Virus genome (UHGV): UHGV-1379542
Direction: 5' to 3' (one strand)
From: a virus
DNA length: 43,674 bases
The translations under genes were made by a program, and so were the position numbers. A model generated the notes under the pieces. It saw only the letters and a list, made by a program, of their open reading frames with translations. It ran no database searches and was not told the origin of the DNA. Of the stretch, positions 1-43,674 are shown in pieces. Positions within the stretch are counted from its first letter, which is position 1. Each line of letters starts with the position of its first letter.

Positions 1-51
1 CAACAAATCGAAACGACTGCGACGGTACAGTTCAATGACGATATCGATTAA
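1..51 (+). CDS. terS: terminase small subunit, C-terminal fragment (gene wraps around window ends)
   Basis: Frame-1 ORF is open from position 1 to the TAA at 49-51 (…QQIETTATVQFNDDID*). The ORF at 43345..43674 ends exactly in frame at the window end, so the two pieces join into one ~126-aa TerS if the molecule is circular. Confidence 0.6.
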   Translation, partial: QQIETTATVQFNDDID

Positions 52-1300
52 TCTATCCGAACTGTTACCTAAACACTTTCATAGCTTATGGAAAGCTACT
101 AAGGATAGAGAAAAACTTAACATAGTTGCTAAAGGTGGTCGTGGTAGTGGTAAGTCCTCTGATATATCTATCATCATTACACAGTTAATCATGCGCTATC
201 CTATGAATGCAGTTGTAGTACGTAAGACAGATAATACATTAGCTACATCAGTATTTGAACAAATCAAGTGGGCGATAGAAGAACAAAAGGTGTCACACCT
301 GTTTAAAGTTAAAGTGTCGCCAATGGAAATCACATACGTACCTAGAGGGAATCGAATTATCTTCAGAGGGGCGCAGAACCCTGAACGATTAAAGTCGTTA
401 AAAGATAGTCGGTTCCCTTTTTCTATCATGTGGATAGAGGAGTTAGCAGAATTTAAGACAGAAGATGAAGTTACGACAATTACTAACTCTATGTTACGTG
501 GTGAATTAGATGACGGATTATTTTATAAGTTTTTCTTTAGTTATAACCCACCTAAGAGAAAACAATCGTGGGTTAATAAAAAATATGAAACCTCATTCCA
601 ACCAGATAACACATTCGTACATCATTCAACGTACTTAGATAACCCTTTTATCTCTAAACAGTTTATACAAGAGGCAGAGAGTGCTAAAGAACGTAACGAA
701 CAACGTTATCGTTGGGAATATATGGGCGAAGCTATTGGTAGTGGTGTTGTTCCGTTTAACAACTTACAAATAGAGAAGATACCTGATGACTTATACAAGA
801 CATTCGATAATATACGTAATGCAGTTGACTTTGGTTACGCTACTGATCCGTTAGCATTTGTACGTTGGCACTATGATAAGAAGAAACGTATTATCTACGC
901 AGTTGATGAACACTATGGTGTACAAATAAGCAATAGAGAGTTTGCTAACTGGTTAAAACGTAGAGGTTATCAATCTGATGAGATATACGCAGATAGCGCT
1001 GAACCGAAGTCTATTGCAGAGCTGAAACAAGAACACGGTATTAAGCGTGTTAAAGGTGTGAAGAAAGGTCCTGACAGTGTAGAACACGGGGAACAATGGC
1101 TAGATGATTTAACTGCTATTGTGATAGATCCTAATAGAACACCTAACATAGCAAGAGAATTTGAGAATATCGACTATGAAACTGATAAAGACGGTAACGT
1201 TAAACCGAGATTAGAAGATAAAGACAACCACACGATAGACGCCACTAGATACGCCCTAGAGCGTGACATGAGGCAGAATAAACTTAGCATACTTACGTAA
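35..1300 (+). CDS. terL: terminase large subunit (PBSX/Terminase_3-like ATPase-nuclease)
   Basis: 421 aa. Walker A-like GGRGSGKS near the N-terminus. Sits immediately after terS and before the portal. Overlaps the terS end, as in pac-type siphoviruses. Confidence 0.9.
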   Translation: MTISINLSELLPKHFHSLWKATKDREKLNIVAKGGRGSGKSSDISIIITQLIMRYPMNAVVVRKTDNTLATSVFEQIKWAIEEQKVSHLFKVKVSPMEITYVPRGNRIIFRGAQNPERLKSLKDSRFPFSIMWIEELAEFKTEDEVTTITNSMLRGELDDGLFYKFFFSYNPPKRKQSWVNKKYETSFQPDNTFVHHSTYLDNPFISKQFIQEAESAKERNEQRYRWEYMGEAIGSGVVPFNNLQIEKIPDDLYKTFDNIRNAVDFGYATDPLAFVRWHYDKKKRIIYAVDEHYGVQISNREFANWLKRRGYQSDEIYADSAEPKSIAELKQEHGIKRVKGVKKGPDSVEHGEQWLDDLTAIVIDPNRTPNIAREFENIDYETDKDGNVKPRLEDKDNHTIDATRYALERDMRQNKLSILT

Positions 1301-1305
1301 ACGAG

Positions 1306-2742
1306 GTGATTAGCATTAACTGGCCGTGGGATAAACCATATCACGAACAAGTGGTAGAACAAATCAAACCGAAGTATGAAACGCAAGAAGAAATGATATT
1401 GCGCTTGGTTAGAGAACATAAAGAGAATATAGACAATATCACAATGGGCGAAAGATATTATAATCATCACCCAGATATATTAGACGCTCCTTCCAAAAAA
1501 GATGTAAACGGCGACTATGACGAAACTAAACCGGACTGGCGCATGTATACTAACTACCATCAAAACTTAGTAGACCAGAAAGTAGCTTATGCAGTTGCTA
1601 ATCCTGTGACATTTGGTGTAGATAATGACAAAGCATTAAAACAAATACAACATACACTTAATCACAAGTGGGATGACAAATTAGTAGATATATTAACTGC
1701 TGCAAGTAATAAAGGTATCGAATGGGTTCAACCTTATGTAGATGAAGAAGGAGAATTTAAAACGTTTCGTGTACCTGCAGAACAAGCTGTACCTATTTGG
1801 ACTAATAAAGAAAGAGATGAACTGCAAGCGTTTATCCGTGTATATGAATTAGACGGAGCAGAACGCGTTGAGTATTGGACTAAAGATGATGTGACATTCT
1901 ATGAGTTGAAAGAAGGACAACTTATCCCTGATTTCTATCGTAGTGAAGATCATATACAACCTCATTATTATCAAGGTAATAAATTGATGAGTTGGGGACG
2001 TGTTCCTTTTATTCCGTTCAAGAACAACCCACAAGAAGTATCTGACTTATTCATGTATAAAACAATTATAGACGCGTTAGATAAGCGATTATCAGACACA
2101 CAAAACACTTTTGATGAATCAGTAGAGTTAATCTATATCTTAAAAGGTTATGAAGGTGAAGATATGAAAGACTTCATGCATAACCTTAAATACTACAAAG
2201 CAATTAGTGTTGCAGGGGAAAGTGGTTCCGGTGTAGATACTATTAAAGTAGAAGTGCCTATCGACTCTGTTAAGGAATACACGAAGATGTTACGTGATTA
2301 CATTATAGAGTTTGGACAAGGTGTAGACTTCCAACAAGATAAGTTTGGTAATAGCCCTAGTGGTATTGCACTTAAGTTTATGTACAGTAACTTAGACTTA
2401 AAAGCTAACAAGCTAAAGAATAAAACACTTACTGCATTACAAGAGTTGTTGCAGTACATTATCGACTTCTACAGATTAGATGTGAAAGTGCAAGATATCG
2501 AGATTACATTCAACTTCAATGTAATGGTTAATGAGTTAGAGAACTCTCAAATCGCTATGAATTCTACAGGATTATTATCTAAAGAAACTATTCTTTCTAA
2601 TCATGCTTGGGTTGAAGATCCTGTAGCTGAAATGGAAAGAATAGAGCAAGAAAACATAGAACTCAATCAACAACTCCCTGACATTGAGGAGGGATTGAAT
2701 GACGAACAACAAAGACAATCCGAAAATAACCAATCAGAATGA
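1306..2742 (+). CDS. portal protein (SPP1 gp6-like)
   Basis: 478 aa with an acidic C-terminus. Position after terL and before the Mu-F-like minor head protein. GTG start is inferred and the exact start is uncertain. Confidence 0.8.
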   Translation: MISINWPWDKPYHEQVVEQIKPKYETQEEMILRLVREHKENIDNITMGERYYNHHPDILDAPSKKDVNGDYDETKPDWRMYTNYHQNLVDQKVAYAVANPVTFGVDNDKALKQIQHTLNHKWDDKLVDILTAASNKGIEWVQPYVDEEGEFKTFRVPAEQAVPIWTNKERDELQAFIRVYELDGAERVEYWTKDDVTFYELKEGQLIPDFYRSEDHIQPHYYQGNKLMSWGRVPFIPFKNNPQEVSDLFMYKTIIDALDKRLSDTQNTFDESVELIYILKGYEGEDMKDFMHNLKYYKAISVAGESGSGVDTIKVEVPIDSVKEYTKMLRDYIIEFGQGVDFQQDKFGNSPSGIALKFMYSNLDLKANKLKNKTLTALQELLQYIIDFYRLDVKVQDIEITFNFNVMVNELENSQIAMNSTGLLSKETILSNHAWVEDPVAEMERIEQENIELNQQLPDIEEGLNDEQQRQSENNQSE

Positions 2743-3646
2743 TATAGATAACTACATCGATAAACTGGTTAATCAAGCAGAGAAAGAAATTGAAATACTA
2801 TTTGCTAAACGTTTGAAAGAAATCAAACAGATTATTGCGAACATGTATGAGAAATACGATAGAGATGAACCACAAGTGACGTGGACTGAATTCAATAAAT
2901 ACAACAGGCTCAACAAAGAACTTAATCGTATAGGACAGATGTTATCTCAAGACTACAGAGAAGTCGCTAAGGCTATCAAACAATCACAACAGAACGTCTA
3001 TATCGAAAAGTACATGATGAGCCTATTTTTGTATGAAGTAGCAAGTCAAACGTCTATGAACTTTGATATACCTACTTCGCAGACAATACAGACGGCAATT
3101 GAACAACCTATTGAGTTTATTAAGTTAGTACCTACACTGCAGAAACATCGTGATGATACATTGAAGCGTATTCGTATGCATATCACACAAGGCATTATGA
3201 GTGGCGAGGGCTATTCTAAGATAGCTAAAGCGTTAAGAGATGACTTAGGAATGGCAAAGGCTCAATCAGTAAGAGTAGCACGTACAGAAACAGGACGCGC
3301 ATTGTCACAAGCAGGATTAGATAGTGCAATGGTAGCTAAAGATAACGGACTTGATATGAAGAAACGTTGGTACGCTACTAAAGATACACGTACAAGAGAT
3401 ACACACAGACACTTAGACGGACAAACAGTAGGCATTGACGAAAATTTTCACTCAAGTGGTTGTGTAGGTCCTGCACCTAAGTTGTTTGTAGGTGTAGCTA
3501 GTGCAAAAGAGAACATCAATTGTCGTTGTAAGCTTCTTTATTACATAGACGAAGATGAATTACCTACAACGATGAGAACTAAAGAAGATGGCGTAATACC
3601 TTTCACTAACTATAGAGAGTGGGAGAAGAATAAACGTAAGCAGTAA
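2699..3646 (+). CDS. minor head protein (phage Mu F / SPP1 gp7-like head morphogenesis protein)
   Basis: 315 aa. Overlaps the portal 3' end. Conserved position. A C-terminal Cys-containing region is present (…INCRCKLLYY…). Confidence 0.7.
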   Translation: MTNNKDNPKITNQNDIDNYIDKLVNQAEKEIEILFAKRLKEIKQIIANMYEKYDRDEPQVTWTEFNKYNRLNKELNRIGQMLSQDYREVAKAIKQSQQNVYIEKYMMSLFLYEVASQTSMNFDIPTSQTIQTAIEQPIEFIKLVPTLQKHRDDTLKRIRMHITQGIMSGEGYSKIAKALRDDLGMAKAQSVRVARTETGRALSQAGLDSAMVAKDNGLDMKKRWYATKDTRTRDTHRHLDGQTVGIDENFHSSGCVGPAPKLFVGVASAKENINCRCKLLYYIDEDELPTTMRTKEDGVIPFTNYREWEKNKRKQ

Positions 3647-3739
3647 ATACTCGACCTTAGCACCGTCGTTAAAAGGCTTCTTTTTTATACAAATCTTTCG
3701 TGTCGTTACACGTAAAAAACGTAAAAGGAGCAATTAAAT

Positions 3740-4333
3740 ATGGACTTATACGCATTATTAGGGCAATTTAAAGACGGTGAAATCGATAAACAGAAAATGA
3801 TTGACGCTATTGATGAATCGAAATCAGGTATGGTACCACGTTCTCGATTGAATGACAAGAACGCTGAAATTGATGAGTTAAAAGCAGAGATTACTAACCG
3901 TGATGAACAAATTGCCAAATTACAAGACTCTGTGAAAGATGATAGCGAGTTACAAAAAGAACTCGACGAATTAAAAGATAAAAACGCAGAGTGGCAAACT
4001 AAGTACCAAGAATCACAATTGAATAACGCTGTTAAGTTAGCTGTTGCGAAAGACGCGAACGACGCTGACGACATTCTAGCTTTCATCAACAAAGATGAAC
4101 TAGAACTACAAGATGACGGCAAAGTTAAAGGTTTAGATAAAGCGATTGAATCGCTAAAAGAGTCTAAACCTTATTTATTTGCTGAAAGTAAACCTAGTGG
4201 ACGTACACCAGATGACGGTAAAAACGTAAATGGTGGGATTACACAAGAAGAATTTAACAATATGAGTGTCGCAGAGAGAACTAATCTATTCGTTAACGAT
4301 AGAAAAACTTACGACACTCTAATAAATAATTAG
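3740..4333 (+). CDS. head scaffolding protein
   Basis: 197 aa, highly acidic, predicted coiled coil. Lies immediately upstream of the major capsid gene. RBS aaaaggag. Confidence 0.7.
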   Translation: MDLYALLGQFKDGEIDKQKMIDAIDESKSGMVPRSRLNDKNAEIDELKAEITNRDEQIAKLQDSVKDDSELQKELDELKDKNAEWQTKYQESQLNNAVKLAVAKDANDADDILAFINKDELELQDDGKVKGLDKAIESLKESKPYLFAESKPSGRTPDDGKNVNGGITQEEFNNMSVAERTNLFVNDRKTYDTLINN

Positions 4334-4350
4334 AAAAGAGGTAATAACAT

Positions 4351-5181
4351 ATGGCACAAGGAACAACAACTAAAAGTACACAAATCGTTCCAGAAGTATT
4401 AAAACCTATGATGCAAGCAGAATTAGATAAGAAATTGAGATTTGCACAATTTGCAGACATTGACAGTACATTAGTAGGACAACCAGGTGACACTTTAACT
4501 TTCCCTGCATTTGTTTACAGTGGTGATGCTACAGTAGTACCTGAAGGACAAAAAATTCCTGTAGACAAAATTGAAACTAACAGACGTGAAGCTAAAATTC
4601 ATAAAATCGGTAAAGGTACTGATATTACTGATGAAGCTTTATTGTCTGGTTATGGCGACCCTCAAGGAGAAGCAGTACGTCAACATGGTTTAGCTATTGC
4701 TAACAAAGTAGATAATGACGTATTAGAAGCTTTACGAGGTACTAAATTAACTGTAAGTGCAGACATCGGCACATTAGCAGGCTTAGAAGCTGCAATTGAC
4801 ACATTCGATGATGAAGATTTAGAACCAATGGTATTATTCATTAATCCTAAAGACGCTGGTAAGTTACGCTCTAGTGCTTCAGATAACTTCACTCGAGCTA
4901 CTGAATTAGGCGATAACATTATCGTTAAAGGTGCATTTGGGGAAGCGTTAGGAGCTGTTATTGTACGTTCTAAGAAATTAGATGAGGGCGAAGCTATTTT
5001 AGCTAAACGTGGTGCAGTTAAACTTATCACTAAACGTGATTTCTTCTTAGAAACTGACCGTGATCCTTCAACTAAAACAACTGCTTTATACAGTGATAAA
5101 CACTATGTAGCATACTTATATGACGAATCTAAAGCAGTTAAGGTAACTAAAGGCGCTGGAACTACAGACTCAGGTGCATAA
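4351..5181 (+). CDS. major capsid protein
   Basis: 276 aa. Strong RBS. Position between the scaffold and head-tail joining genes. Gly/Ala/Val-rich composition typical of an MCP. Confidence 0.75.
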   Translation: MAQGTTTKSTQIVPEVLKPMMQAELDKKLRFAQFADIDSTLVGQPGDTLTFPAFVYSGDATVVPEGQKIPVDKIETNRREAKIHKIGKGTDITDEALLSGYGDPQGEAVRQHGLAIANKVDNDVLEALRGTKLTVSADIGTLAGLEAAIDTFDDEDLEPMVLFINPKDAGKLRSSASDNFTRATELGDNIIVKGAFGEALGAVIVRSKKLDEGEAILAKRGAVKLITKRDFFLETDRDPSTKTTALYSDKHYVAYLYDESKAVKVTKGAGTTDSGA

Positions 5182-5197
5182 AAGGAGGTAGTGACGT

Positions 5198-5488
5198 ATG
5201 TATAAAGTAATCGAGTATTTCGAAGACTTACAAGATGACAACTACGAGTATAACGTAGGAAAAACGTTCCCTCGTAAAGGTTTAAATGTAAGTGATGAGC
5301 GATTAACTGAACTATCCACAAAAGAAAACCGTCAGAATAAGCCCCTTATTGAACGTGTAGAGAGCGATAAAGACTTAAAAGGTATGAAAGTATCTGAGTT
5401 AAGAGAACTCGCTAAAGAACGTGAAATAGAGGGCTTTTCTAGTATGAAAAAAGATGAACTCGTTGAAGCATTAGGAAGTGTTAAGTAA
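5198..5488 (+). CDS. Rho termination factor N-terminal domain-containing protein
   Basis: The C-terminal motif MKVSELRELAKEREIEGFSSMKKDELVEAL resembles the Rho_N helix-hairpin. Small ORF with RBS aaggagg. Confidence 0.5.
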   Translation: MYKVIEYFEDLQDDNYEYNVGKTFPRKGLNVSDERLTELSTKENRQNKPLIERVESDKDLKGMKVSELRELAKEREIEGFSSMKKDELVEALGSVK

Positions 5489-5802
5489 TGAACGCACAAG
5501 ACGTTAAATTATTAAATAATCTTTCACTCGATGATACTTCAAATGACGAAACAATCGAATTACTTATTGAAAAGTATCTGAATGTAGCTGAAGAATATTG
5601 TAATCAAACATTCAATAGGAAGTCATTACCTAGTAATGTAGAGAAATTCATTGCTAACTGTATTAAACAAGGTACGACTAGCAATATTTCTTCACGTACT
5701 ATGGGTACTGTGAGCTACACTTTCGTTACTGATCTACCTAAGGAAACATACGGTTGCCTTAAACCATTTAGACGCTTACGTTGGACTGGTTATCATGTTT
5801 AA
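5488..5802 (+). CDS. head-tail connector protein (gp6-like)
   Basis: 104 aa. Start overlaps the previous stop (ATGA). Conserved position. Confidence 0.55.
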   Translation: MNAQDVKLLNNLSLDDTSNDETIELLIEKYLNVAEEYCNQTFNRKSLPSNVEKFIANCIKQGTTSNISSRTMGTVSYTFVTDLPKETYGCLKPFRRLRWTGYHV

Positions 5803-6124
5803 TCCATTAAATGAGTTTCCTCATACAATCGAATTAGGCTCAAGAGAGGTTGTAGGAGAGTATCCACGTGAACAAGAGCGCTTTAAGAGCGAAAAAACAA
5901 TACAAGGATTTATGGATACGCCTACTTCATCTGAACAACTCAAGTTTCATCAAATGAACCAATCATACGACAGAAACCTATATACGCCGTACAGCCTGCC
6001 AATAACTAACACAAACTTATTTAAATACAACGGTAAAACTTACGAAGTAGTAGGAGAACCTGTCGACCAAGGCGGGCAACAAGAAATCAACTTAACAAGA
6101 TTGAGAGAATGTCCTATTGGCTAA
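5795..6124 (+). CDS. head closure / head-tail adaptor protein
   Basis: 109 aa, overlapping neighbouring genes. Conserved position. Confidence 0.5.
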   Translation: MFNPLNEFPHTIELGSREVVGEYPREQERFKSEKTIQGFMDTPTSSEQLKFHQMNQSYDRNLYTPYSLPITNTNLFKYNGKTYEVVGEPVDQGGQQEINLTRLRECPIG

Positions 6125-6530
6125 GGTTAAATACGGAAATTGGGATTTAGTTAAGGAGCTTGAGGAGTTCGAAAAAGAAACGATTAGATGGGCTAAAAAA
6201 GGTATAGCCAAGACAACAACTATTATTCACAATTCAATAGTTAGTAACATGCCTGTTGACACCGGTTATCTTAGAGAAAGTGTTTCTATGGACTTTAAGA
6301 AGGGCGGATTAACAGGCGTTATTAATATCGGCAGTGAGTACGCAGTTTACGTCAACTACGGTACAGGGATATACGCAGTCGGTCCGGGTGGTAGTCGTGC
6401 AAAGAATATCCCGTGGCGTTACAAAGACGCAGACGGACATTGGCACACAACTAAAGGGCAACATGCACAACCCTTTTGGGAACCAGCAATTGATGAAGGT
6501 AGAGCGTTTTTCAACAAGTATTTTTCATAA
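6117..6530 (+). CDS. HK97 gp10-like tail component (neck protein)
   Basis: 137 aa. TTG start overlapping the upstream stop. Conserved position. Confidence 0.45.
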   Translation: MAKVKYGNWDLVKELEEFEKETIRWAKKGIAKTTTIIHNSIVSNMPVDTGYLRESVSMDFKKGGLTGVINIGSEYAVYVNYGTGIYAVGPGGSRAKNIPWRYKDADGHWHTTKGQHAQPFWEPAIDEGRAFFNKYFS

Positions 6531-6542
6531 GGTGGTTAAGAT

Positions 6543-6980
6543 ATGTGGGTATCAGTAGAACGGTATCTGTTTAACAAGATATATAACAAATTAAAAAGCA
6601 ACCCTATCATCAAAAAACAGCTTGGTGGTAGGGTTTTTGATTGCGTTCAAAAAGACGCTGTTTACCCATATATCGTTGTGGGTGAAACAAACGTCACTAA
6701 TAAAGAAACGACAACGAGTATGTTTGAAGATGTAGGCGTAACCTTACACGTGTATAGTCAAGCGAGAAATCGTGATGAAGTAGCACAAATCATTCAGTTT
6801 TTAGGCCATGTACTTAATACTGAATTTGAAATCGAACATTACTCATTCATTAAAAGTCGAATTGATACACAAGAAGTGATAACTGATATTGATCAGTACA
6901 CGAAACACGGTATCATCCGGCTTGTTTTTAAATACAGACACAATACTTTACAAAGGAGTGTAACGAATGGCACAGAATAA
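6543..6980 (+). CDS. tail completion / tail terminator protein
   Basis: 145 aa. Position directly upstream of the major tail protein. Confidence 0.45.
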   Translation: MWVSVERYLFNKIYNKLKSNPIIKKQLGGRVFDCVQKDAVYPYIVVGETNVTNKETTTSMFEDVGVTLHVYSQARNRDEVAQIIQFLGHVLNTEFEIEHYSFIKSRIDTQEVITDIDQYTKHGIIRLVFKYRHNTLQRSVTNGTE

Positions 6981-7506
6981 ATACATTGCAGCGCTACAAA
7001 TTGCTGACAAAGATTTAGCAAGTCAGTTAAAAGAAGAAGACGCTATTCTGTTAGCTAGTTTAGCTGAGGGTGGACACACAATCAGTAATGACTTAGCTGA
7101 AATGATTACAGGTGGCAAAAAAGACTACGGTCGTAACTCTGTAGAAGAAGAAATCAAGTTAACTGTTGACCGTGTTCCTGGCGACAAAGGTCAAGAAGCT
7201 TTAAAAGAGTCAGTTAAAAACTTCAAGCAGTTACGTTTATGGATTTGGGAAGTTAAGAAACGTGACGGTAAACATCACGGTACTTTCGCTTATGTAATTG
7301 TAGAAGAGCACGAATGGTCATTTGATGATGAGGATGACAAAATCGAAATCACTGCAAAAGTTAAATTTAACAGTGCAGACGGTTCTGTTGATTCATTACC
7401 ACCAGAATGGCTCAACCCTAGTGCTGCTGCTCCTACAGTTGAATGGGAAGATATGGGAGCTTATACAGACTCATACGAAAACCGTACACCTAAAGCTGGT
7501 GCATAA
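6967..7506 (+). CDS. major tail protein
   Basis: 179 aa. Followed by a strong intrinsic terminator. Position upstream of the G/GT chaperone pair. Confidence 0.7.
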   Translation: MAQNKYIAALQIADKDLASQLKEEDAILLASLAEGGHTISNDLAEMITGGKKDYGRNSVEEEIKLTVDRVPGDKGQEALKESVKNFKQLRLWIWEVKKRDGKHHGTFAYVIVEEHEWSFDDEDDKIEITAKVKFNSADGSVDSLPPEWLNPSAAAPTVEWEDMGAYTDSYENRTPKAGA

Positions 7507-7513
7507 GTTTTAC

Positions 7514-7539
7514 GAGGGCATTAAGCCCTCTATTTTTTT
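7514..7539 (+). terminator. rho-independent terminator after major tail gene
   Basis: Hairpin gagggc-attaa-gccctc followed by tattttttt. Confidence 0.7.
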
Positions 7540-7567
7540 GTACAAAATAACAGAAAGAGGTTAAAGA

Positions 7568-8062
7568 ATGACTGAAAATACAATCAATCCTATTACTACA
7601 TTAGAGTTCAACGGAGAAGAAGTAGAAGCAAAAGCTACTTTCTTATTCGATAAAGCGGCTAAGAAATTTGCTAAAGACGAGCAAGATGAAAATGGTAAAA
7701 CTACTAAAGTATCTGGTTTTAATGCTATTTATAACGGTATTTTAGAACGTGATCCAATCGCAATTGCAGACTTTTGGGAATGTGCAACGGCTTATTTAGG
7801 TAAAAATGCACCTAAACGTGAAGATATCGAACAAACACTAATGGAAATTATCGATGAAAAACAAGACTCTATCGAATTGTTACAAGGTGCATTGCAAGTT
7901 TTAAATCATAGTGGTTTTTTCAAGCAGAAATCACGTCTATTCTGGACACAAATGAACTCGGCTCCATCTATGGTCAAAGAAGAAGAGAAAGAGTCTACGA
8001 AGAACGGTATCGAGTTCATGAAGAACAATTACAAAGAAATCATGGGCGAGCTACCTTACTAG
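7568..8062 (+). CDS. tail assembly chaperone (G-like)
   Basis: 164 aa. Lies between the major tail protein and the tape measure. Contains the slippery site. Confidence 0.7.
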   Translation: MTENTINPITTLEFNGEEVEAKATFLFDKAAKKFAKDEQDENGKTTKVSGFNAIYNGILERDPIAIADFWECATAYLGKNAPKREDIEQTLMEIIDEKQDSIELLQGALQVLNHSGFFKQKSRLFWTQMNSAPSMVKEEEKESTKNGIEFMKNNYKEIMGELPY

Positions 8063-8427
8063 ATTATTCAGAAATACGGCAGATAACCAGTCAATACATA
8101 GGCTATCTTCCTTATGATGAATTAATGAGTTTGACGCCTAATGAATGGAAAGACTGGGTTGTAGGTCGTAGATTGGCGTTACTTGATGAACAAGAAAATT
8201 TATTGTTTGGTGCTCAAGCTAACGGTCTTGTGCAAGCTGGTAAATCACTTAAACGATTACAGAAGCAGTTAGAGCGTGCAAGATACGAAGTACGTGGACA
8301 GTCAGAAGAATACGAACGTATGAAAGAACGTAAGTTAGCACATAACAAACGCATTAGAAATGTTCAGAAACAAGGTACACGACGCTTTATGAATTCATTA
8401 CGCAATACTAGTCAAAAAGGAGGTTAG
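7568..8427 (+). CDS. tail assembly chaperone GT-like fusion made by -1 programmed frameshift at 7915-7921
   Basis: The -1 frame is open with no stops from 7912 to 8427 and contains the annotated ORF 8125..8427. The slippery heptamer T TTT TTC (7915-7921) sits where the two frames overlap. Confidence 0.65.
7915..7921 (+). promoter_or_regulatory. -1 ribosomal frameshift slippery heptamer U UUU UUC
   Basis: Zero-frame codons ggT TTT TTC. The -1 frame opens at 7912, just after a TAG at 7909-7911. Confidence 0.6.
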
Positions 8428-8429
8428 CC

Positions 8430-11400
8430 ATGAATAAAAACTTTATGGCTCGTATATCGGCGATCATTACAGATTTCCAACGGAATATCAGAAAAGCTCA
8501 ACGTATGGCAAAAACTGAAATACCCGATGAAATCGAAACACAAGTCGATGCCAACATAAGTAAATTTAAACGAGCCTTAAACACTGCAAAAGCAATGGCT
8601 CAACGTTGGCGAGAACATACCGTTGATATAGACGGTAACAACAACCCTATCAAACGAGCAATTGCAGTAGTTAAAGAGAAATTACAGCAATTAAGAGATA
8701 AAGAAGTAGACATAAAAGGGAATAACAATCCCTTAAAACGTTCAGTATTAGGTGCTAAGGCTATGTTGGCAACCTTACATGATAAAACGGTAAAAGTTAA
8801 CTTTGATACAAGGGGAATGACAAGAGCTCAAGTATTAACTAGAGCTTTAAGTCAGTCTTTAGATGAATACGGCGACAAAATGGATAGATTAGCTACTCGT
8901 ATTCGTACATTTGGTACTGTGTTTGGACAACAAATCAAAGGTGTGCTAATCGCTAGTTTTCAAGGTCTTATTCCTATTATAGCTGGTTTAGTACCCGCCA
9001 TCATGGCAGTAGCTAACGCATTAGGTGTAGTTGCTGGTGGTGCATTAGGTGTAGCTGGTGCATTTGGTATCGCTGCAGGTGGTGCGTTTGCATTTGGTGC
9101 TATGGCAGTAAGTGCAATTAAGATGTTGAGTGATGGAACGTTAGAAGCAACAGCACAAACTAAACGTTATGAGGCTTCTTTAGAAGAAGTTCAATCAACA
9201 TGGGAAAGTATTATCAAACAAAACCAAGCACAAATCTTCAATACGTTATCTAACGCTTTAGACACTGTTAACGTAGCTTTAGGGCGTATGAAACCATTCT
9301 TAGCAGGTATCTCTAAAGGAATGGAACAAGCGTCACAGAGTGTCTTAAAATGGGCTCAAAACAGTCAAACCGCCAGCAAATTCTTTAACATGATGAATAC
9401 AACAGGCGTTAAGACATTCAACACATTATTAAGTGCTGCAGGACGTTTTGGTGACGGACTTATTAATGTGTTCACGCAGTTAGGTCCACTATTCTTATGG
9501 ACTGCTAAAGGTTTAGATAATTTAGGTAAGAAGTTCCAAAACTGGGCTAACAGCGTAGCAGGTCAGAACGCTATTAAATCATTTATTGAATACACTAAAA
9601 CTAATTTACCTAAAATAGGTCAAATATTTGGCAATGTATTCATGGGTATTGGTAACTTGATGAAAGCATTTGCTCAAAACAGTTCTAATATCTTTGATTG
9701 GCTAGTTAAAATGACTGCTAAGTTTAGAGAATGGTCTGAACAAGTTGGTAAATCTGAAGGGTTTAAAAAGTTTGTTCAGTATGTACAAGAGAATGGTCCA
9801 GTCATTATGGATCTAATCGGTAATATTGTAAGAGTATTGGTTGCGTTTGGTACTGCAATGGCGCCAATAGCAAGTGTGATATTAAAAGTAGTAACAGCAT
9901 TAGCTGGTTTCATAGCTAAATTGTTTGAAACACACCCAGCTATAGCTCGAATGGTTGGTATAGGTATGATACTCGGTGGTATGTTGTGGGCTTTACTAGC
10001 ACCAATCATCGCAGTAGGTACATTATTAGAAACATTCTTTAGTAGTAGTCTATTCAAAGCTATGACTAAAATGTTAGCTTTTGCTAGAAACACTCAAATA
10101 CTTAGAAGCGCGTTAAACCTAGTGAAAATCGCATTTAGACTTCTCATGAGCCCTATTAGTACAATTATGCGTATCTTACCTATGTTAAGTGGTGCTTTCC
10201 AAGCATTGGGTGTAGCTATAGGCGCGATTTCATGGCCTGTATTGGCTATCATAGGCGTTATCGTTGCTTTAATAGGTATTATTGTTTGGTTATGGAAAAC
10301 GAACGAGAATTTCAGAAAAACTTGTGTTGAAGCTTGGAACACAATTAAAGATACGATAATGAACGCTGTAAAAACAGTGATTAACTGGTTTAATCAGTTC
10401 AGAGCGTCTATCGAACAAACGCTCCAACCAATTATGCCTATCTTACAAATGTTAGGACAAGTTGCAAACCAAGTTCTCGGCTTCTTATTCATCAGCCTCA
10501 TCAATGGTTTAGTAACTGCTTTCCAATCTCTTTGGACTGTGATTTCAGTAGTATTCACTGCGATAGGTGGAATACTACAAGCTGCTACGCAATTGATTTT
10601 CGGTTTGTTTACTGCATTAATACAGCTCCTTACTGGAGATTTTTCTGGTGCTTGGCTAACTTTACAAACTACGATTTCTAATGTAATGACTACGATTTGG
10701 AATACTTTAGTATCAATTTGGAACCAGATTTCTAACTTCATATTCAACGTTTTGAACAGAATACTTGGTACTAATATCACAAGTTGGAATCAAATTTGGT
10801 CTGTGATTTCAGGCGCAGTTACTAGAATTTGGAACACGGTGTCAAGTTGGTTTTCACGTGTAGTTTCAACCGTTGCTCAAAAAATGATGCAAGCACTCAG
10901 TCGTATCATTTCTGGTGGTGCACAATGGGTTTCAAGTATCATTTCTGCAATGAGTAGATTTTTACAAGCAGTAGTTAGTGGTTTCTTCAGAGTGGTTGGC
11001 GCTGTTGGAAATGGCATGACAACTGCATTAAATCGAGCTCGAAGTTTTATTGGAGGTTTCTTTCAAGCAGGTGTTGATATGATAGCTGGAATGATTAGAG
11101 GTATCGTTCAAAAAGCTAAAGATTTAGCAGCAGCTGCATGGAACGCTGCAAAAGGTGCATTGAACGCTGCAAAAAGTGCTTTGGATAGTCATTCTCCTTC
11201 TCGTAAATTCATACAACTAGGTAATGATAGTATGACTGGATTAGGTATGGGTATCTCTGAATATGCAGGAAAAGCTGCAAGAGAAAGTAAATTAGCGGCG
11301 TTAAAAGTTATGGATGCCTTCAACGCAGACTTAAAACCGGACTTTTTAGAAGAAGGATTGGCTGGTTTAGGAAATTCTTTCGATGCACATATGAGTAAAG

Positions 11401-19959: not shown

Positions 19960-22107
19960 ATGGGATTACCTAGTCCTAAAAGAAGAAAACCTACTGCTTC
20001 GGAAGTTGCAGCATGGGCAAAAAGAATGATTGGCAGAAGAGTTGATGTAGATGGTTATTATGGCGCCCAGTGTTGAATCTAGCACCTTTGATGAGTAATC
20101 ATCATAGCAAACTCCTCTAATTCATGGGAACCCTAAACAAGTTATGTTGTAGGCAATCATGAGCGAAGCCTATAAATAGGAACGTGCAACGACTAGTCGA
20201 AAGACGTACACTCAAGCGAGTGGAAACGGGGAGCAACCTAATAGGTTGATGATATAGTCTGAACATTCATAGAAATATGAAGAAGGTGACAAGTGGCGAT
20301 TGTCATCGTAACAAAATTGTGGGATTTACCAAACTACATTTTCAATAGATATTGGCATTTCAAAACAACAGGAAATGCGATTGCTATGGCGTGGTATAGA
20401 TATCCTAAAGGGTTCAAATTCTATAGGAATACTAGAAACTTTGTTCCGAAACCCGGAGATATGGCTGTATGGGGTACAGGTTCTTTTAATAATGGCACAG
20501 GACATACAGCTGTTGTAGTAGGTCCATCTAACAAGCGTTACTTCACCAGTGTGGATCAAAATTGGCGAAATGCAAACGGTTATACCGGTTCTCCCGGTTC
20601 GTTAGAAAAACACACATACTATGGTATAAGTGGGTTCGTCAGACCTCCCTACCACGCAGAAACTAAGAAACCATCGAAACCAAGTAGTACACCGTCCAAA
20701 CCCTCTAATGAAAACACTCCTAAAAACACAAAAGAACAAACGAAACCTATAACTAAAGAGGTTACCAAAGTTTCCTATACATCGTTCGCATATGATTTAG
20801 ACGATGATTTGGAATATATTTATCATTATATGGTTGAAGGGCAAAAGTTGATAGGGAAAGTAAAAGGTATATATATCAAAGAGAGTACACATATGCGTTC
20901 TGTTGAAGAATTGTATTTACAACGTAATAAATATGTGAATGAAGATGAATACCCTCATGTATATATTGACCGTGAGCGTGTATGGACACCTAGACCTGAT
21001 TCAGAAGAAGCACCAGAACATCCAGGTTGGCTTGTTATGGAAGTTTGCGGAGGACAAACGGATAGTAAACGCCAATTCATGCTCAATCAAATCAGAGCGT
21101 TAATCTACGGCGTTTGGTTGCTAAGTTGGAGTAAGGTAAAACTTTCTGAATCGTCAATCAAAGCAGATCCTAACATATGGCGTTCTATGAAAGATTTAAT
21201 CAATTACGACTTAATCAAAAATGGTATTCCTGATGAGAGCAAATATAAAGAAGTCGAAAAAAAAATTATCGGTTTATATTTGAAAAGAGATAAATTACTT
21301 ACAGAAACAATTACTACAACAACTACAAAGACAACGATAAAAATTAAACCTAAAACTTCGGTCGACAATCCTTCGCAGAACGATAAGCCGACAGGCAAAA
21401 CAACAAACAGAAATTCAAATAAACCTCGTGTAGTTGTAGAGAAAAGTAAATATACTTTCCAACAAGCGCTTAATGCACAAATGGCTCATGGCATGCCTCA
21501 AAAATCTTATAGTTGGGGTTGGGGCAATGCTTCTAGGTCACAAACAAGTAAGTATATGAATCCTAACACTATATGGAATAGTTCTGTACAAAGGTATCAA
21601 ATGTTGGATTTAGGTAAGTATCAAGGTATATCAGTAAGTAAGTTGAATAAGATACTTAAAGGTAAAGGTACATTATCTGGACAAGGTAAAGCTTTTGCAG
21701 ACGGTTGTAAGAAGTACAATGTAAATGAAATTTACTTAATCGCTCACGCTTTCTTAGAGAGTGGATATGGCCGTAGTAACTACGCTAGTGGACGATATGG
21801 CATTTATAACTATTTTGGTATTTCTGCATATGATAACAACCCAGATGCTTCAATTGCATACGCTAGACGTCAAGGTTGGACTAGTCCACGTAACGGTATT
21901 ATAGGTGGCGCTAAGTTTGTTAGAAAACAATATTTTAATAAAGGTAAAAACACATTATACAGAATGCGTTGGAACCCTAAAAACCCTGGTTACATGCAAT
22001 ACGCTACTGCGATTGAATGGTGTAACTTCCAAGCTACAACTATTAGTAGCTTATATAAAAAAGTAGGATTAAAGGGTATGTACTACATTCGAGATAAATA
22101 TAGATAA
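19960..22107 (+). CDS. tail-associated peptidoglycan hydrolase (CHAP peptidase + GH73 glucosaminidase), split into two exons 19960..20073 and 20320..22107 by a group I intron
   Basis: Exon 1 (RBS gaggtg, ATG 19960) encodes …DGYYGAQC and then meets TGA. Exon 2 resumes in frame with WDLPNYIFNRYW…, restoring the CHAP motif QCWD (compare the endolysin [15 protein letters not shown]). The C-terminal half carries a glucosaminidase-like block (…YLIAHAFLESGYGRSNYASGRYGIYNYFGI…). Confidence 0.7.
20074..20319 (+). mobile_element. group I self-splicing intron (246 nt, no homing endonuclease ORF)
   Basis: Preceded by a U (20073) and ends in G (20319). The internal guide gcac (20082-85) pairs with exon gugu (20070-73) to form P1. 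P7 halves are GACUA (20191-95) and UAGUC (20255-59), within the S-element-like GAUGAUAUAGUC. Removing the intron fuses the exons in frame. Confidence 0.7.
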
Positions 22108-25148: not shown

Positions 25149-26551
25149 TGGTATCTGTTAGAACATATAAGCAATCAATTGCATATTTAAAAAGTTTAGA
25201 GGGCAAAGCGTTAAACCCTGACGGTGCTTATGGTTTCCAATGTTTCGACGTAGCTAACCAATATTGGCTTTATTTATTCGGTCATACTTTAAAAGGTGTG
25301 GGTGCTGCAGACATTCCGACATGGAACAATTTTACAGGAGAAGCTACTGTTTATGAGAATACACTATCATTTTTAGCTAAGCCTGGAGATGTTGTAATAT
25401 TCAATAGAAATTATGGTGGGGGTTATGGTCACGTAGGTATCGTTATTTCTGCTACTTCTAACTCTATAACTATACTGGAGCAAAATTGGGTTGGCGGTGC
25501 GTATTGGACACCTCCTGAAGTTACTACAAGACGTACACATGGCTACGACTTCCCTATGTGGTTTATTAGACCTTTCTACGCTAAAGAAACGACTAAGAAC
25601 AAAGTTAAAAGTAAAGCTAAACCAGTTAAGAAAGCAAAAGCTAAGAAAGGTAAGAAAATCTTGCTTGTTGCAGGTCATGGTAAAGGTGCTTATTCAAATG
25701 ATCCAGGTGCCGTAGCAAACGGATATAATGAACGTGACTTCAATAGAAAGGAAATTATTCCTAGAATAAAGAAATATCTTGAAAGTGTAGGTAATACAGT
25801 TGTTTTATACGGTGGCAAATCAATGAATCAAGACTTGTATCAAGATACGTTATATGGACAACGTGTAGGTAATTATTCCGACTATGGTTTATATTGGGTT
25901 AAAAAGAATGTTAAGCCTGATGTCATTGTAGAATTCCACTTAGACGCTGCAAGCCCTCAAGCAAGTGGTGGTCATGTCATTGTAAGTGACAGGTATCCTG
26001 CAGATGATATAGACAAAGCGTTATCTAGCGCATTAGGTAAGACGGTTGGTAAAATTAGAGGTGTAACACCTAGAAACGATTTATTAAACGCTAATGTTAC
26101 CGGACAACTTAATTTGAATTACAGATTAATAGAATTAGGCTTCATCACTAGTAAAAAAGACATGAACTATATCACTAAGAACGTCAATGAGTTTACTAAA
26201 CGACTTGCCGAAGCTATTAACGGTAGACAAATCAATGCACCTAAGAGCAAACCGTCTAAAGCTAAAACAACGTGGAACTGGGGAGGTAAATTCACTGCTA
26301 ACAGTACTATTAAAGTACGTAAGTCACCTGGACTTAAAGGGAGTGTAGTTGAAAGTGGTTCGTGGTTATACAAGGGGAATTATGTTCCTTTCGACCAAGT
26401 AATCAAAAAAGATGGGTATTGGTGGATTAGATTTAAATATGTTAAGCCAGGCTCAAGTAATAAACATTTCTATTGTGCCGTTTGTAAAATCACAGACAAA
26501 CAGCAAAAAATTAAAAATGAAAAATACTGGGGTGAAATAGACTGGAAATGA
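25148..26551 (+). CDS. endolysin: CHAP peptidase + N-acetylmuramoyl-L-alanine amidase + SH3b cell-wall binding domain
   Basis: 467 aa. N-terminal CHAP (…[13 protein letters not shown]… with a downstream His). Central amidase block [19 protein letters not shown] Lys-rich linker. C-terminal SH3_5-like segment (…[23 protein letters not shown]…). Confidence 0.85.
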
Positions 26552-33329: not shown

Positions 33330-34016
33330 ATGCAGCGTATTACAAGATACCAGAGAGATAACGACGGTACTTATTCCGTCGTTGCTACTGGTGTTGAATT
33401 AGAACAAAGTCATATCGACTTATTAGAAAATGGTTACTCACTCATTGCAGAAGTTGAAGTACCTGATAACAAAAAATTATCAATAGATCAACGTAAAAAG
33501 ATTTTTGCATTATGTAGAGATATTGAGTTGCACTGGGGAGAACCTGTGGAATCACTAAGGAAAAGATTTCAAGCAGAGCTAGAAATAATGAATGGTTATA
33601 ACGAGATCAGTTTAAGTAACTGTTCAATGAGAATAGCGAGTGAATTAATAGAGTTGATTATATCTTTTATGTTCCATCATCAAATACCAATGAGAGTAGA
33701 AACAAGCAAATTGCTAAGTGGAGATAAAGCTATGTTGTACTGGGCAACGATCAATCGAAACTGTGTGCTATGCGGGAAATCAAACGCTGACCTTGCACAT
33801 CACTACGCAATAGGTCGTGGTGCTAACCGTAAGAAGATGCAGCATTACGATTATGAAGTATTGGCTTTATGCAGATTCCACCACCAAGAACAGCACAACA
33901 TAGGCGTTAAGTCTTTTGACGAAAAATATATCTTACAGGATAGCTGGATAAAAGTTGATGATCGTTTAAACGCTATGTTGAAAGGAGCTAAAAATGAATT
34001 CGAGAGTAATAACTAA
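33330..34016 (+). CDS. DUF968-like phage protein with Cys/His cluster (possible HNH-like nuclease)
   Basis: Cys/His cluster CVLCG…HHYAIGRGANRK…CRFHHQEQHN. Confidence 0.4.
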   Translation: MQRITRYQRDNDGTYSVVATGVELEQSHIDLLENGYSLIAEVEVPDNKKLSIDQRKKIFALCRDIELHWGEPVESLRKRFQAELEIMNGYNEISLSNCSMRIASELIELIISFMFHHQIPMRVETSKLLSGDKAMLYWATINRNCVLCGKSNADLAHHYAIGRGANRKKMQHYDYEVLALCRFHHQEQHNIGVKSFDEKYILQDSWIKVDDRLNAMLKGAKNEFESNN

Positions 34017-38799: not shown

Positions 38800-39414
38800 A
38801 TGAGACATGTATGGACTGATGAGCATGAAAAATATATTCGAAATAACATCAAAGGTAAAACTAAGAAAGAAATGACAGAAATGTTTAATAAGGAGTTTGG
38901 CACTGATGTTACTACAGATAAAATGAAAGGTTTTTGTTCGAGAAAGAGGATAAGAAGTGGCGTTGATTGTAAGTTTAAAAAAGGTGTGCCTTCTTGGAAC
39001 AAAGGTAAAAGTTTTCCGTCTAGAGGCAGAAGCTCTGAAACTCAATTTAAGAAAGGACAAAAGCCCGATAACACATTTCCTTTAGGAACGATAAAAACCA
39101 CTACTGACGGTTATAAGTTTATAAAAATCAAAAAACGAGGTTCTAAAAACGAATGTTGGAAACAATACACACATTATTTATGGGAACAAAAGCACGGACC
39201 TGTGCCCAAAGGATATTGTTTAATACATTTGAATCAAAACAGGTCAGACTGTAGCGAAGAAAATATAGCATTGGTAAGTCGTAAAGAATTAGTACGTATT
39301 AACAAACTTAATTTAACTTCAACTGATCGTAACTTAACTAAAGCAGGAATCAACTTTGTTAAATTATTAAACAAACAAAAAGAAGTTAAGGACAAAATAA
39401 ATGCTACTAAGTGA
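38800..39414 (+). CDS. HNH homing endonuclease
   Basis: HNH motif YTHYLWEQKHGPVPKGYCLIHLNQNRSDCSEENIALVSRKE. Basic N-terminal region. Confidence 0.6.
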   Translation: MRHVWTDEHEKYIRNNIKGKTKKEMTEMFNKEFGTDVTTDKMKGFCSRKRIRSGVDCKFKKGVPSWNKGKSFPSRGRSSETQFKKGQKPDNTFPLGTIKTTTDGYKFIKIKKRGSKNECWKQYTHYLWEQKHGPVPKGYCLIHLNQNRSDCSEENIALVSRKELVRINKLNLTSTDRNLTKAGINFVKLLNKQKEVKDKINATK

Positions 39415-42825: not shown

Positions 42826-43268
42826 GGTGGACTTTTGAAGTGTGTAAGTCCGTTTATAATCGGTGTATTATGATATTGTAAGAATTACCTCACAAGACAT
42901 AGTGTTTATCCTTTCGCACTATGGTGGGGTATTCAATATCGAAGTGATTGGACAAGTGTTTATCGTCTTTAACTAGACGTTGCGCATCCGATTGCTTAAC
43001 TATCCGTCAGAGTGGCGGGTAGTTTTATTGAATCTTACAAATGTGAATTTTTATATTCTTTACCATTTTCATCAGTATCGTCTTTAATATCACCATAAAC
43101 AGCAACACGACGATACTTCTTATTTTTAATTAGTTTGTAATATAGCTTTTTTGTCTTTCTTGTGAGTTATCCGTGAGAACACACGGGTAACTTATTTTTA
43201 TGTATTGATGTGACATAGAGGTGTGACATGAGCACATAAACTCAAATAAATAATAAAACATAATCATT

Positions 43269-43298
43269 AGGCACTGTTTATGCAGTGTCTTTTTTTAT
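43269..43298 (+). terminator. rho-independent terminator upstream of terS
   Basis: 8-bp stem aggcactg / cagtgtct with a 6-nt loop, followed by ttttttta. Confidence 0.65.
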
Positions 43299-43344
43299 AC
43301 GTCAAATAAAGGTGCTTAACCGTGAGAGTAGGTGGTAATATACG

Positions 43345-43674
43345 ATGACTAACATGCAAAATAACGCAACATTCGGGGCGTACTTAGAATTAACCAAGAA
43401 ACAACAAGAATATATACGCTTGAAGAACGAAACAGATTTAGCAGAGGGAGAAATAGCAGTAGAAATTGACGTTAATCGTTCTACTATATCCCGTTGGAAG
43501 CATAATGATAAATTCAGAGAGGGTTTTAAAGGTTACCAAGCAGAGCATTTATCTAAGCAGGTACCGAAAGCCTTACAAACGATGATTAACTTGTTAGACG
43601 CTAAAAGTGAACTAGTACGCTACCAAGCCTCTAAAGATATATTAGATCGTACAGGTTACACTCCTGTAGAAAGA
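43345..43674 (+). CDS. terS: terminase small subunit, N-terminal 110 codons (continues at position 1)
   Basis: RBS gtaggtgg. HTH-like segment EIAVEIDVNRSTISRWKHN. The frame is open to the window end and joins in frame to 1..51. Confidence 0.7.
   Translation, partial: MTNMQNNATFGAYLELTKKQQEYIRLKNETDLAEGEIAVEIDVNRSTISRWKHNDKFREGFKGYQAEHLSKQVPKALQTMINLLDAKSELVRYQASKDILDRTGYTPVER

Follow-up and report, generated by a model that had tools for sequence, protein, structure and literature searches.

A group I intron without an open reading frame directly behind the catalytic cysteine codon of a staphylococcal phage tail hydrolase gene

In a Rockefellervirus-type Staphylococcus epidermidis phage, here represented by the virus genome UHGV-1379542 (43,674 nt, referred to as the window), the gene for the tail-associated hydrolase (hyd) is split at positions 20074-20319, which raises the question of what the intervening segment is and what it does to the gene. 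The open reading frame (ORF) at 19960-20076 on the plus strand starts with ATG and encodes MGLPSPKRRK...DVDGYYGAQC, followed by TGA at 20074-20076. Reading resumes in the same frame 246 nt further on, at TGG 20320, with WDLPNYIFNRYW and continues up to a stop codon that ends at 22107. All of these coordinates, which had been reported in an initial annotation, were confirmed on the sequence. With a probability of about 93%, we regard the segment 20074-20319 as a group I intron of the IA type, which is self-splicing, lacks an ORF and is a selfish element in hyd rather than a regulator of the gene.

The boundaries of the insert were obtained from related alleles that do not contain it. The phages phiIPLA7, CNPH82, vB_SepS_48 and CNPx read GCCCAGTGT|TGGGAT, hence the insert is exactly 246 nt long. 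In longer context, the insert-free alleles read GGCGCCCAGTGT|TGGGATTTACC, with GCCCAGTGTTGGGAT as the presumed target site. TG is repeated at both ends of the insert and therefore three registers are formally compatible with the insert-free alleles. Only the register 20073|20074...20319|20320 yields a U in front of the 5' splice site (U20073) and a G as the final base of the insert (G20319). Exon 1 (19960-20073, plus strand, codons 1-38) is identical in insert-free alleles, and exon 2 (20320-22107, plus strand, codons 39-633 and the stop codon) is collinear with them. The predicted splice junction is ...CAGUGU|UGGGAU... (flanks GCCCAGUGU|UGGGAUUUACC). The fused exons encode an uninterrupted product of 633 amino acids (aa), in which the motif DVDGYYGAQC|WD is intact. 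The ten alleles compared in their spliced form are collinear at 633 or 636 aa, and the junction of each reads GAQC|WDLPNY. When the N-terminal 150 aa of the hydrolase were used as a tblastn query, 685 phage records were matched, and each sampled match outside this phage group consisted of one uninterrupted piece. In agreement with the direct junction proposed in the initial annotation, insert-free homologues, including most of the 685 records, carry no residues between QC and WD.

The product of the fused exons is a CHAP/glucosaminidase hydrolase with the active-site motif QCWD, as had been claimed. The Pfam domain CHAP (PF05257) covers residues 31-119 and crosses the junction (37.2 bits, cut-off 26), while Glucosaminidase (PF01832) was found at residues 495-614 of the fused product (43.6 bits, cut-off 30.2). 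Upon comparison with solved structures, Cys38, encoded by the UGU at the end of exon 1, aligns with Cys54 of LysK CHAPK. Cys54 is the nucleophile of CHAPK and the exchange C54A abolishes activity (PMC4126393). The CHAPK calcium ligands Asp45, Asp47, Tyr49 and Asp56 correspond to D29, D31, Y33 and D40 of the hyd product, in which H100, D117 and N119 are the counterparts of His117, Glu134 and Asn136. Exon 1 contributes the nucleophile as well as the calcium-loop residues D29, D31 and Y33, whereas the remaining part of CHAP (D40, H100, D117 and N119) and the C-terminal Glucosaminidase domain are encoded by exon 2. The intron divides the most constrained stretch of the CHAP domain, immediately 3' of the nucleophile codon. 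The endolysin motif FQCFDV, to which the active-site motif had been compared, is present in the window at position 25235. The 633-aa spliced protein of the window allele was not found in a collection of 15 billion proteins.

When the whole 43.7-kb window was scanned, Intron_gpI (RF00028) turned out to be the only Rfam family above threshold. The match scored 93.8 bits (gathering threshold 50 bits) with an E-value of 5.1e-23, ranges from 20063 to 20282 and covers the full model (1-253), which substantiates the assignment to group I made from the letters alone. As the model does not extend beyond P9, the match stops at 20282, and the P9.1 hairpin and a conserved tail up to G20319 account for the other 37 nt. 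The intron does not harbour an endonuclease gene, since the longest open stretch in six frames comprises 49 codons on the antisense strand, and the statement that no ORF lies inside is thus correct. The copies in PH15 and E72 are ORF-less as well. The nearest GenBank record lists the spurious antisense ORF of 49 codons (20117-20266, minus strand) as BE21_0067, a hypothetical protein.

The fold was analysed in an alignment of eight introns, six of which are located in hyd (window, PH15, IME1323_01, IME1318_01, StB12 intron 1 and HOB 14.1.R1) and two in tmpA, which codes for the tail tube (phiSA_BS1 and Fi200W intron 2). A further 120 viral-contig loci with the IA core signature were set aside, as the covariation of these eight staphylococcal introns was already decisive. 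Thirteen helices with 67 pairs were scored; partners slid by 1-3 columns and 500 shuffles served as controls. Standard pairs were observed in 98.3% of the cells (eight introns, 13 helices), compared to 34-46% in the slid controls. Changes on both sides of a pair (compensatory changes) were found at 32 of the 67 pairs, compared to 0-6 in the slid controls. None of the 500 shuffles matched these pairing and covariation values. P2, P3, P5, P6, P6a, P8 and P9 each contain compensatory pairs and are 97-100% paired. The minimum free energy (MFE) fold of -72 kcal/mol (z = -3.4 compared to 200 shuffles) independently recovered all nested helices.

At the 5' splice site, P1 (20070-75/20080-85) is formed by GUGU of the exon and UG of the intron, which pair with UAGCAC in the Rfam alignment. 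The splice-site wobble U20073.G20082 is an invariant U.G in all eight homologues, and, in the tmpA introns, the pair beside it has changed from U-A to A-U in step with the exon. The internal guide sequence UCUAGCAC (20078-20085) serves two helices. Its part GCAC (20082-85) binds GUGU (20070-73) at the end of exon 1, and UCUA (20078-81) can bind UGGG (20320-23) of exon 2 as P10. A P10 of 3-5 bp is possible in seven of the eight homologues, which lends modest support to this short helix. In the tmpA introns, the guide is GCUC instead of GCAC, in keeping with an exon end that is GAGU instead of GUGU, and upstream of this guide the sequence is altered to match the different exon 2.

The further helices, all on the plus strand, follow in the order expected for the family. 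P2 (20089-94/20099-104) is a hairpin of 6 bp with a GUAA loop, which is 100% paired with three compensatory pairs and is part of the MFE fold. P3 joins CUCCUC (20112-17) and GGGGAG (20228-33), is 100% paired and shows compensatory changes at four of its six pairs. The P4-P6 domain (20122-20185) comprises the invariant P4 (20122-27/20157-62) as well as P5 (20132-35/20150-53), P6 (20163-65/20183-85) and P6a (20169-72/20177-80); the latter three carry compensatory changes, and all four are present in the MFE fold. P7, the pseudoknotted helix that binds guanosine, is formed by GACUA (20191-95, R element) and UAGUC (20255-59, S element, within GAUGAUAUAGUC). All five pairs are standard in the eight homologues and the strands match the Rfam consensus AGACUA...GAUAUAGUC. 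The P1 strands that had been picked out from the letters, along with the U and G at the two splice sites, are the correct ones, and the P7 strands agree with the fold.

Between P7 and the 3' strand of P3, the region 20196-20222 is an insertion relative to the Rfam model. It contains P7.1 (20196-98/20203-05, GAAA loop, two compensatory pairs) and P7.2 (20209-13/20218-22, three compensatory pairs), both of which are 100% paired. Extra P7.1/P7.2 hairpins at this position are typical of subgroup IA, and the architecture alone suggests that the intron belongs to this subgroup (IA2-like). P8 (20234-38/20244-48) is a hairpin of 5 bp, 100% paired with two compensatory pairs, in the loop of which two of the PH15 differences are located. 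P9 (20266-71/20276-81) has 6 bp, a GAAA loop and four compensatory pairs, and is 100% paired. Beyond the end of the Rfam model, the P9.1 hairpin of 8 bp (20285-92/20300-07) is 93.8% paired, has four compensatory pairs and is found in the MFE fold. The intron closes with the tail GUAACAAAAUUG (20308-20319), which ends with G20319. In this tail, CGUAAC and the UUG at the end do not vary among the eight homologues, and the tail is kept as CGUAACAAAWUUG| in the hyd as well as in the tmpA context.

If the intron follows the standard group I pathway, the pre-mRNA would fold into P1-P9.1 and free guanosine bound at P7 would attack after U20073, which the guide GCAC holds in the U.G wobble. The freed end of exon 1 would subsequently attack after the terminal G20319, with exon 2 presumably aligned by P10. 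Ligation to ...CAGUGU|UGGGAU... would yield the 633-aa enzyme with the calcium loop and the nucleophile motif intact. The first three bases of the intron (20074-20076, plus strand) form an in-frame UGA, which would halt ribosomes at the intron entrance before they reach the ribozyme. An in-frame stop codon opens all six aligned hyd copies, as UGA in the window and as UAA in the other five.

The intron has been described before, in PH15 (2007) and in E72 (2021), and the window contains a further copy. The gene ph24 of PH15 (DQ834250; Daniel, Bonnen and Fischetti 2007) is the same gene with an insert of 246 nt at the same Cys|Trp site, and 241 of the 246 bases are identical to those of the window. 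It was deposited in 2006 as a join of two pieces. The five substitutions are located in loops and joining regions, except for intron base 2, which is part of P1, and none of them breaks a helix. Base 2 is an A in PH15, which turns the P1 pair from G.U to A-U and the stop codon from UGA to UAA. The exons of PH15 and the window are 93% identical. The hyd gene of vB_SepS_E72 (MW364975) contains an identical intron at the same site, is likewise annotated as a join, and its intron was published as predicted and noncoding (PMC8125051). The spliced products that we predict for PH15 and E72 equal ABI21813.1 and QQV93440.1 letter for letter, therefore the deposited junction is the same as the one inferred here. 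The PH15 hydrolase intron is reported to splice in vivo, in the work of 2007 as it is cited in a passage of PMC7235722.

These data also bear on the idea that the segment is a dead insertion, in which case the 246 nt would be retained and hyd would be a pseudogene that yields only a truncated hydrolase starting at GUG 20293 or AUG 20386. Separate fragments are indeed called in the GenBank records of BE21, phiIPLA5, BE01, IME1318 and IME1323, and the hydrolase is not strictly needed for replication according to the DW2 paper, which cites work on phage 11 (PMC4124061). Such an insertion would, however, hardly keep a full ribozyme structure by compensatory changes. Exon 1 is open and conserved, the junction restores the frame and the motif exactly, and the PH15 copy is the one cited as splicing in vivo. 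We consider a dead insertion to be extremely improbable.

The nearest public record for the hyd locus is that of the S. epidermidis phage vB_SepS_BE21, which is 100% identical over 2251 nt. Among Rockefellervirus records, the 246-nt insert is present in seven phages (BE21, E72, E72m5, BE01, phiIPLA5, PH15 and PG-2021_89) and missing from about ten relatives, including phiIPLA7, CNPH82, CNPx, vB_SepS_48, 459, 27, 456 and IME1348_01. Two relatives, BE28 and PG-2021_93, carry a larger insert of another type. The intron copies of phiIPLA5, BE01, E72m5 and BE21 are located at the same site, are 100% identical to that of the window and are not annotated. For the group of E72, phiIPLA5, BE01, E72m5 and BE21, the exons differ from those of the window by 6.5-12.5%. 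The intron occurs sporadically in phages that share 85-98% identity in hyd.

Outside this group, the same C|W site of hyd is occupied in IME1323_01, IME1318_01 and StB12, which are phages of S. caprae, S. haemolyticus and S. hominis, and in HOB 14.1.R1 (host S. epidermidis). These introns are 243-245 nt long, 86-90% identical to that of the window and share its fold with compensatory changes, whereas their host genes are only about 60% identical to the hyd gene of the window. Compared across subfamilies with that of the S. caprae phage IME1323_01, the intron shows 90.5% identity, in contrast to 61% for exon 1, 60% for exon 2 and 51% for the upstream region. Only the 60 nt at the start of exon 2 have a raised identity, of 82%. 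That the copies of StB12, IME1323 and IME1318, with about 89% identity, lie in endolysin genes, which would have implied a transfer from one paralogous CHAP domain to another, was considered and rejected, as annotation and sequence identify the same CHAP and glucosaminidase tail hydrolase. The hydrolase gene of StB12 is divided into three pieces, since it contains another group I intron, which lies further downstream (Rfam 94.8 bits, approximately 2280-2650 of the compared stretch).

The same ribozyme family was also found in another host gene. Kayviruses and Baoshanvirus (Fi200W, 812, phiSA_BS1) harbour, in their tail tube gene tmpA, introns of 253-256 nt with about 77% identity, which share the helices of the window intron including P7.1, P7.2 and P9.1, as well as the 3' tail. 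They differ from it in host gene and exons, have P1 and P10 guides adapted accordingly, and form a tandem pair in kayviruses. Within the compared stretches, the tmpA copies are located at 2448-2725 and 2799-3054 in Fi200W and at 593-845 in phiSA_BS1.

Taken together, the intron spread horizontally among staphylococcal phage hydrolase genes, in which it was always inserted at C|W, and the best reading is that of a selfish element which occupies a conserved site, not that of a regulator. It is located at C|W because no other stretch of the gene is as conserved as the DNA for the catalytic cysteine and the calcium loop, which provides the same homing site in many phages.

The initial annotation had instead suggested that splicing gates the production of active enzyme. 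According to this explanation, the efficiency of splicing would time or limit the active CHAP hydrolase, and the unspliced RNA would give rise to a peptide of 38 aa or to a protein without the cysteine that starts within the intron. It is true that the intron breaks the nucleophile motif, so that active CHAP requires splicing. In addition, a Shine-Dalgarno (SD)-like AGGUGA (20284-89) precedes the in-frame GUG 20293, from which a cysteine-less protein of 604 aa could be made, and 604-aa calls are present in databases. The SD-like sequence is, however, part of the conserved and base-paired P9/P9.1 and occurs in the tmpA introns too. About ten sister phages, with hyd genes of 92-97% identity, manage without the intron, which shows that a gate is dispensable, and the same intron family resides in the unrelated gene tmpA, while a different intron occupies a site only 6 nt away in hyd. 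Across phages, conservation is also much higher for the intron than for its host gene, and all of these features are typical of a mobile parasite. An insertion at a catalytic codon is no peculiarity either: homing sites are generally situated at critical codons, as they often encode functionally critical residues (review PMC3984707). No evidence in support of gating was found and the distribution of the intron points to a selfish element, which makes a regulatory role very unlikely. The SD-like AGGUGA and GUG 20293, with a spacing of 3 nt (window 20284-20295), are used as a start by gene finders and their arrangement is probably coincidental.

How an intron without an endonuclease gene spreads is a separate question. 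Within the genus, it most likely moved by homologous recombination via the near-identical flanks, in co-infections or with prophages, possibly with the help of an endonuclease acting in trans. In the Rockefellervirus group, 36 sites are fixed-different between five intron-carrying and five intron-less alleles, and intron presence co-segregates perfectly with them. This haplotype is located 160-440 nt downstream of the insertion, mostly at 160-300 nt, and corresponds to positions 276-417 of the coding sequence (CDS; window 20481-20622) as well as to CDS positions 498, 537 and 556. The immediate flanks of the intron are nearly identical in all ten alleles. The co-segregating haplotype suggests inheritance as a block by ordinary homologous recombination. 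The absence of differences among four intron copies was considered as a proof of recent transfer within the genus, and was rejected since the adjacent exon is equally conserved.

Alternatively, the ORF-less intron could home actively and be mobilised in trans ('collaborative homing'), either by an HNH_3 protein or by an HNH/AP2 enzyme of the type encoded in BE28. ORF-less introns are known to undergo collaborative homing (PMC3984707) and the window intron moved between genes of about 60% identity, which offer no long homology arms. The window does encode a free-standing HNH_3 protein (ORF 38800-39414, 204 aa), and the HNH-bearing intron of BE28 uses a hyd site 6 nt away. The homing endonuclease genes had been called neighbouring in the initial annotation, which is not tenable. 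One HNH_3 ORF and one HNHc_6 ORF (33330-34016, 228 aa) are located in the early region, 13-19 kb away, with no link to the intron, and the genes that flank hyd encode no nucleases. No endonuclease is linked to the intron site. The HNH_3 protein of the window, about 18.5 kb distant, is not similar in sequence to the BE28 intron enzyme (E = 32), and its stretch has no megablast match to the HNH gene region of BE21. The co-segregation of intron status with the 36-site exon haplotype fits block inheritance by recombination instead. We therefore regard mobilisation in trans as rather unlikely and favour recombination as the route within the genus.

Several points weigh against the interpretation as a self-splicing, horizontally spread selfish intron. 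P4 and P7 pair perfectly in eight of eight introns and match the Rfam consensus; both are invariant, which renders covariation uninformative for them, and P10 comprises only 2 bp in one homologue. For the copy of the window phage itself splicing is predicted, and the in vivo evidence, which concerns PH15, comes via the citing passage in PMC7235722. The first 200 nt of the CDS are 98-100% identical within the genus, so identical introns are not strong evidence for transfer, and the high conservation of the intron could partly reflect purifying selection on the ribozyme. Finally, neither an endonuclease in the intron nor one acting in trans was identified, and the mechanism of spread proposed above is to be read as putative.

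The second intron type in hyd is located 6 nt upstream of the C|W site. In BE28, an insert of 983 nt lies between the codons for Ala36 and Gln37 (GGAGCT|...AAACG|CAATGTTGGGAT, 644-1626 of the compared stretch). The BE28 intron itself contains an insert of 652 nt, the ORF of which matches phage HNH endonuclease families and Pfam AP2. The 983-nt insert has no Rfam match at the gathering threshold; a permissive Rfam search identified it as a split group I intron, with E-values of 3e-8 for the 5' half and 0.007 for the 3' piece, both sub-threshold. The S. aureus phage DW2 has an ORF-less form at the BE28 site, which is 349 nt long (259-607 of the compared stretch), scores 80.1 bits with Rfam and is 89% and 94% identical to the two BE28 ribozyme halves. 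A putative intron in the hydrolase gene had been proposed by the DW2 authors, who also noted that staphylococcal hydrolase introns resemble the Twort nrdE introns (PMC4124061).

Like the window intron, the DW2/BE28 type belongs to group I and interrupts a tail hydrolase gene of staphylococcal phages at its CHAP-coding 5' end. It differs from the window intron as a separate lineage, with similarity limited to a core of 53 nt, and in its insertion site. The 246-nt type and the DW2/BE28 type were never seen together in the alleles examined, which are a small sample. It is conceivable, though doubtful, that the 12 bases encoding Ala-Gln-Cys-Trp are a homing hot-spot contested by two unrelated introns. 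If this were the case, the ORF-less intron could persist by splitting the endonuclease target of its rival, and thus act as an immunity element, or by mobilisation in trans. The hyd locus with a second intron 6 nt away constitutes a natural system to study the spread of ORF-less introns and the competition for a conserved site, which belongs to a known class of question.

The introns of phage T4 td and Twort orf142 are references for subgroup IA2; they are compact and have an early in-frame stop codon as well as extensions in the form of P7.1/P7.2 and P9.x. Their likeness to the window intron is one of architecture only.

A comparison of the entire window with OQ355700.1 led to the rejection of the assumption that the window is the BE21 genome, despite the 100% identity of the hyd locus. 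The identity to BE21 is 99.1% over 9604-31971 and approximately 95-97% over 1-9680 and 42866-43674, and is patchy at 32-43 kb. The window is a mosaic Rockefellervirus-type relative, is circularly permuted with respect to the BE21 record and has no whole-genome counterpart in the phage collection. In PH15, exactly two CDSs are annotated as joined, the large terminase gene and ph24. The PH15 intron in the large terminase gene (ph2/ph3, 720-2952 of the compared stretch) holds an ORF for a SegB-like endonuclease. The terminase gene of the window appears to be uninterrupted, with no Rfam intron match outside hyd.

No account of the intron was found in the literature on BE21 or BE28. The BE21 record lists 19960-20076 as a hypothetical protein, 20117-20266 (minus strand) as an antisense hypothetical protein and 20386-22107 as a truncated 'tail associated cell-wall hydrolase'. 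In phiIPLA5, BE01, IME1318_01, IME1323_01 and StB12, hyd is also annotated as fragments, in two or three pieces. The value of the present analysis is mainly corrective: a hydrolase that is cloned as an antibacterial from such fragment annotations would be CHAP-dead. The hydrolase protein cluster contains many such truncated versions of 572-604 aa without the catalytic cysteine.

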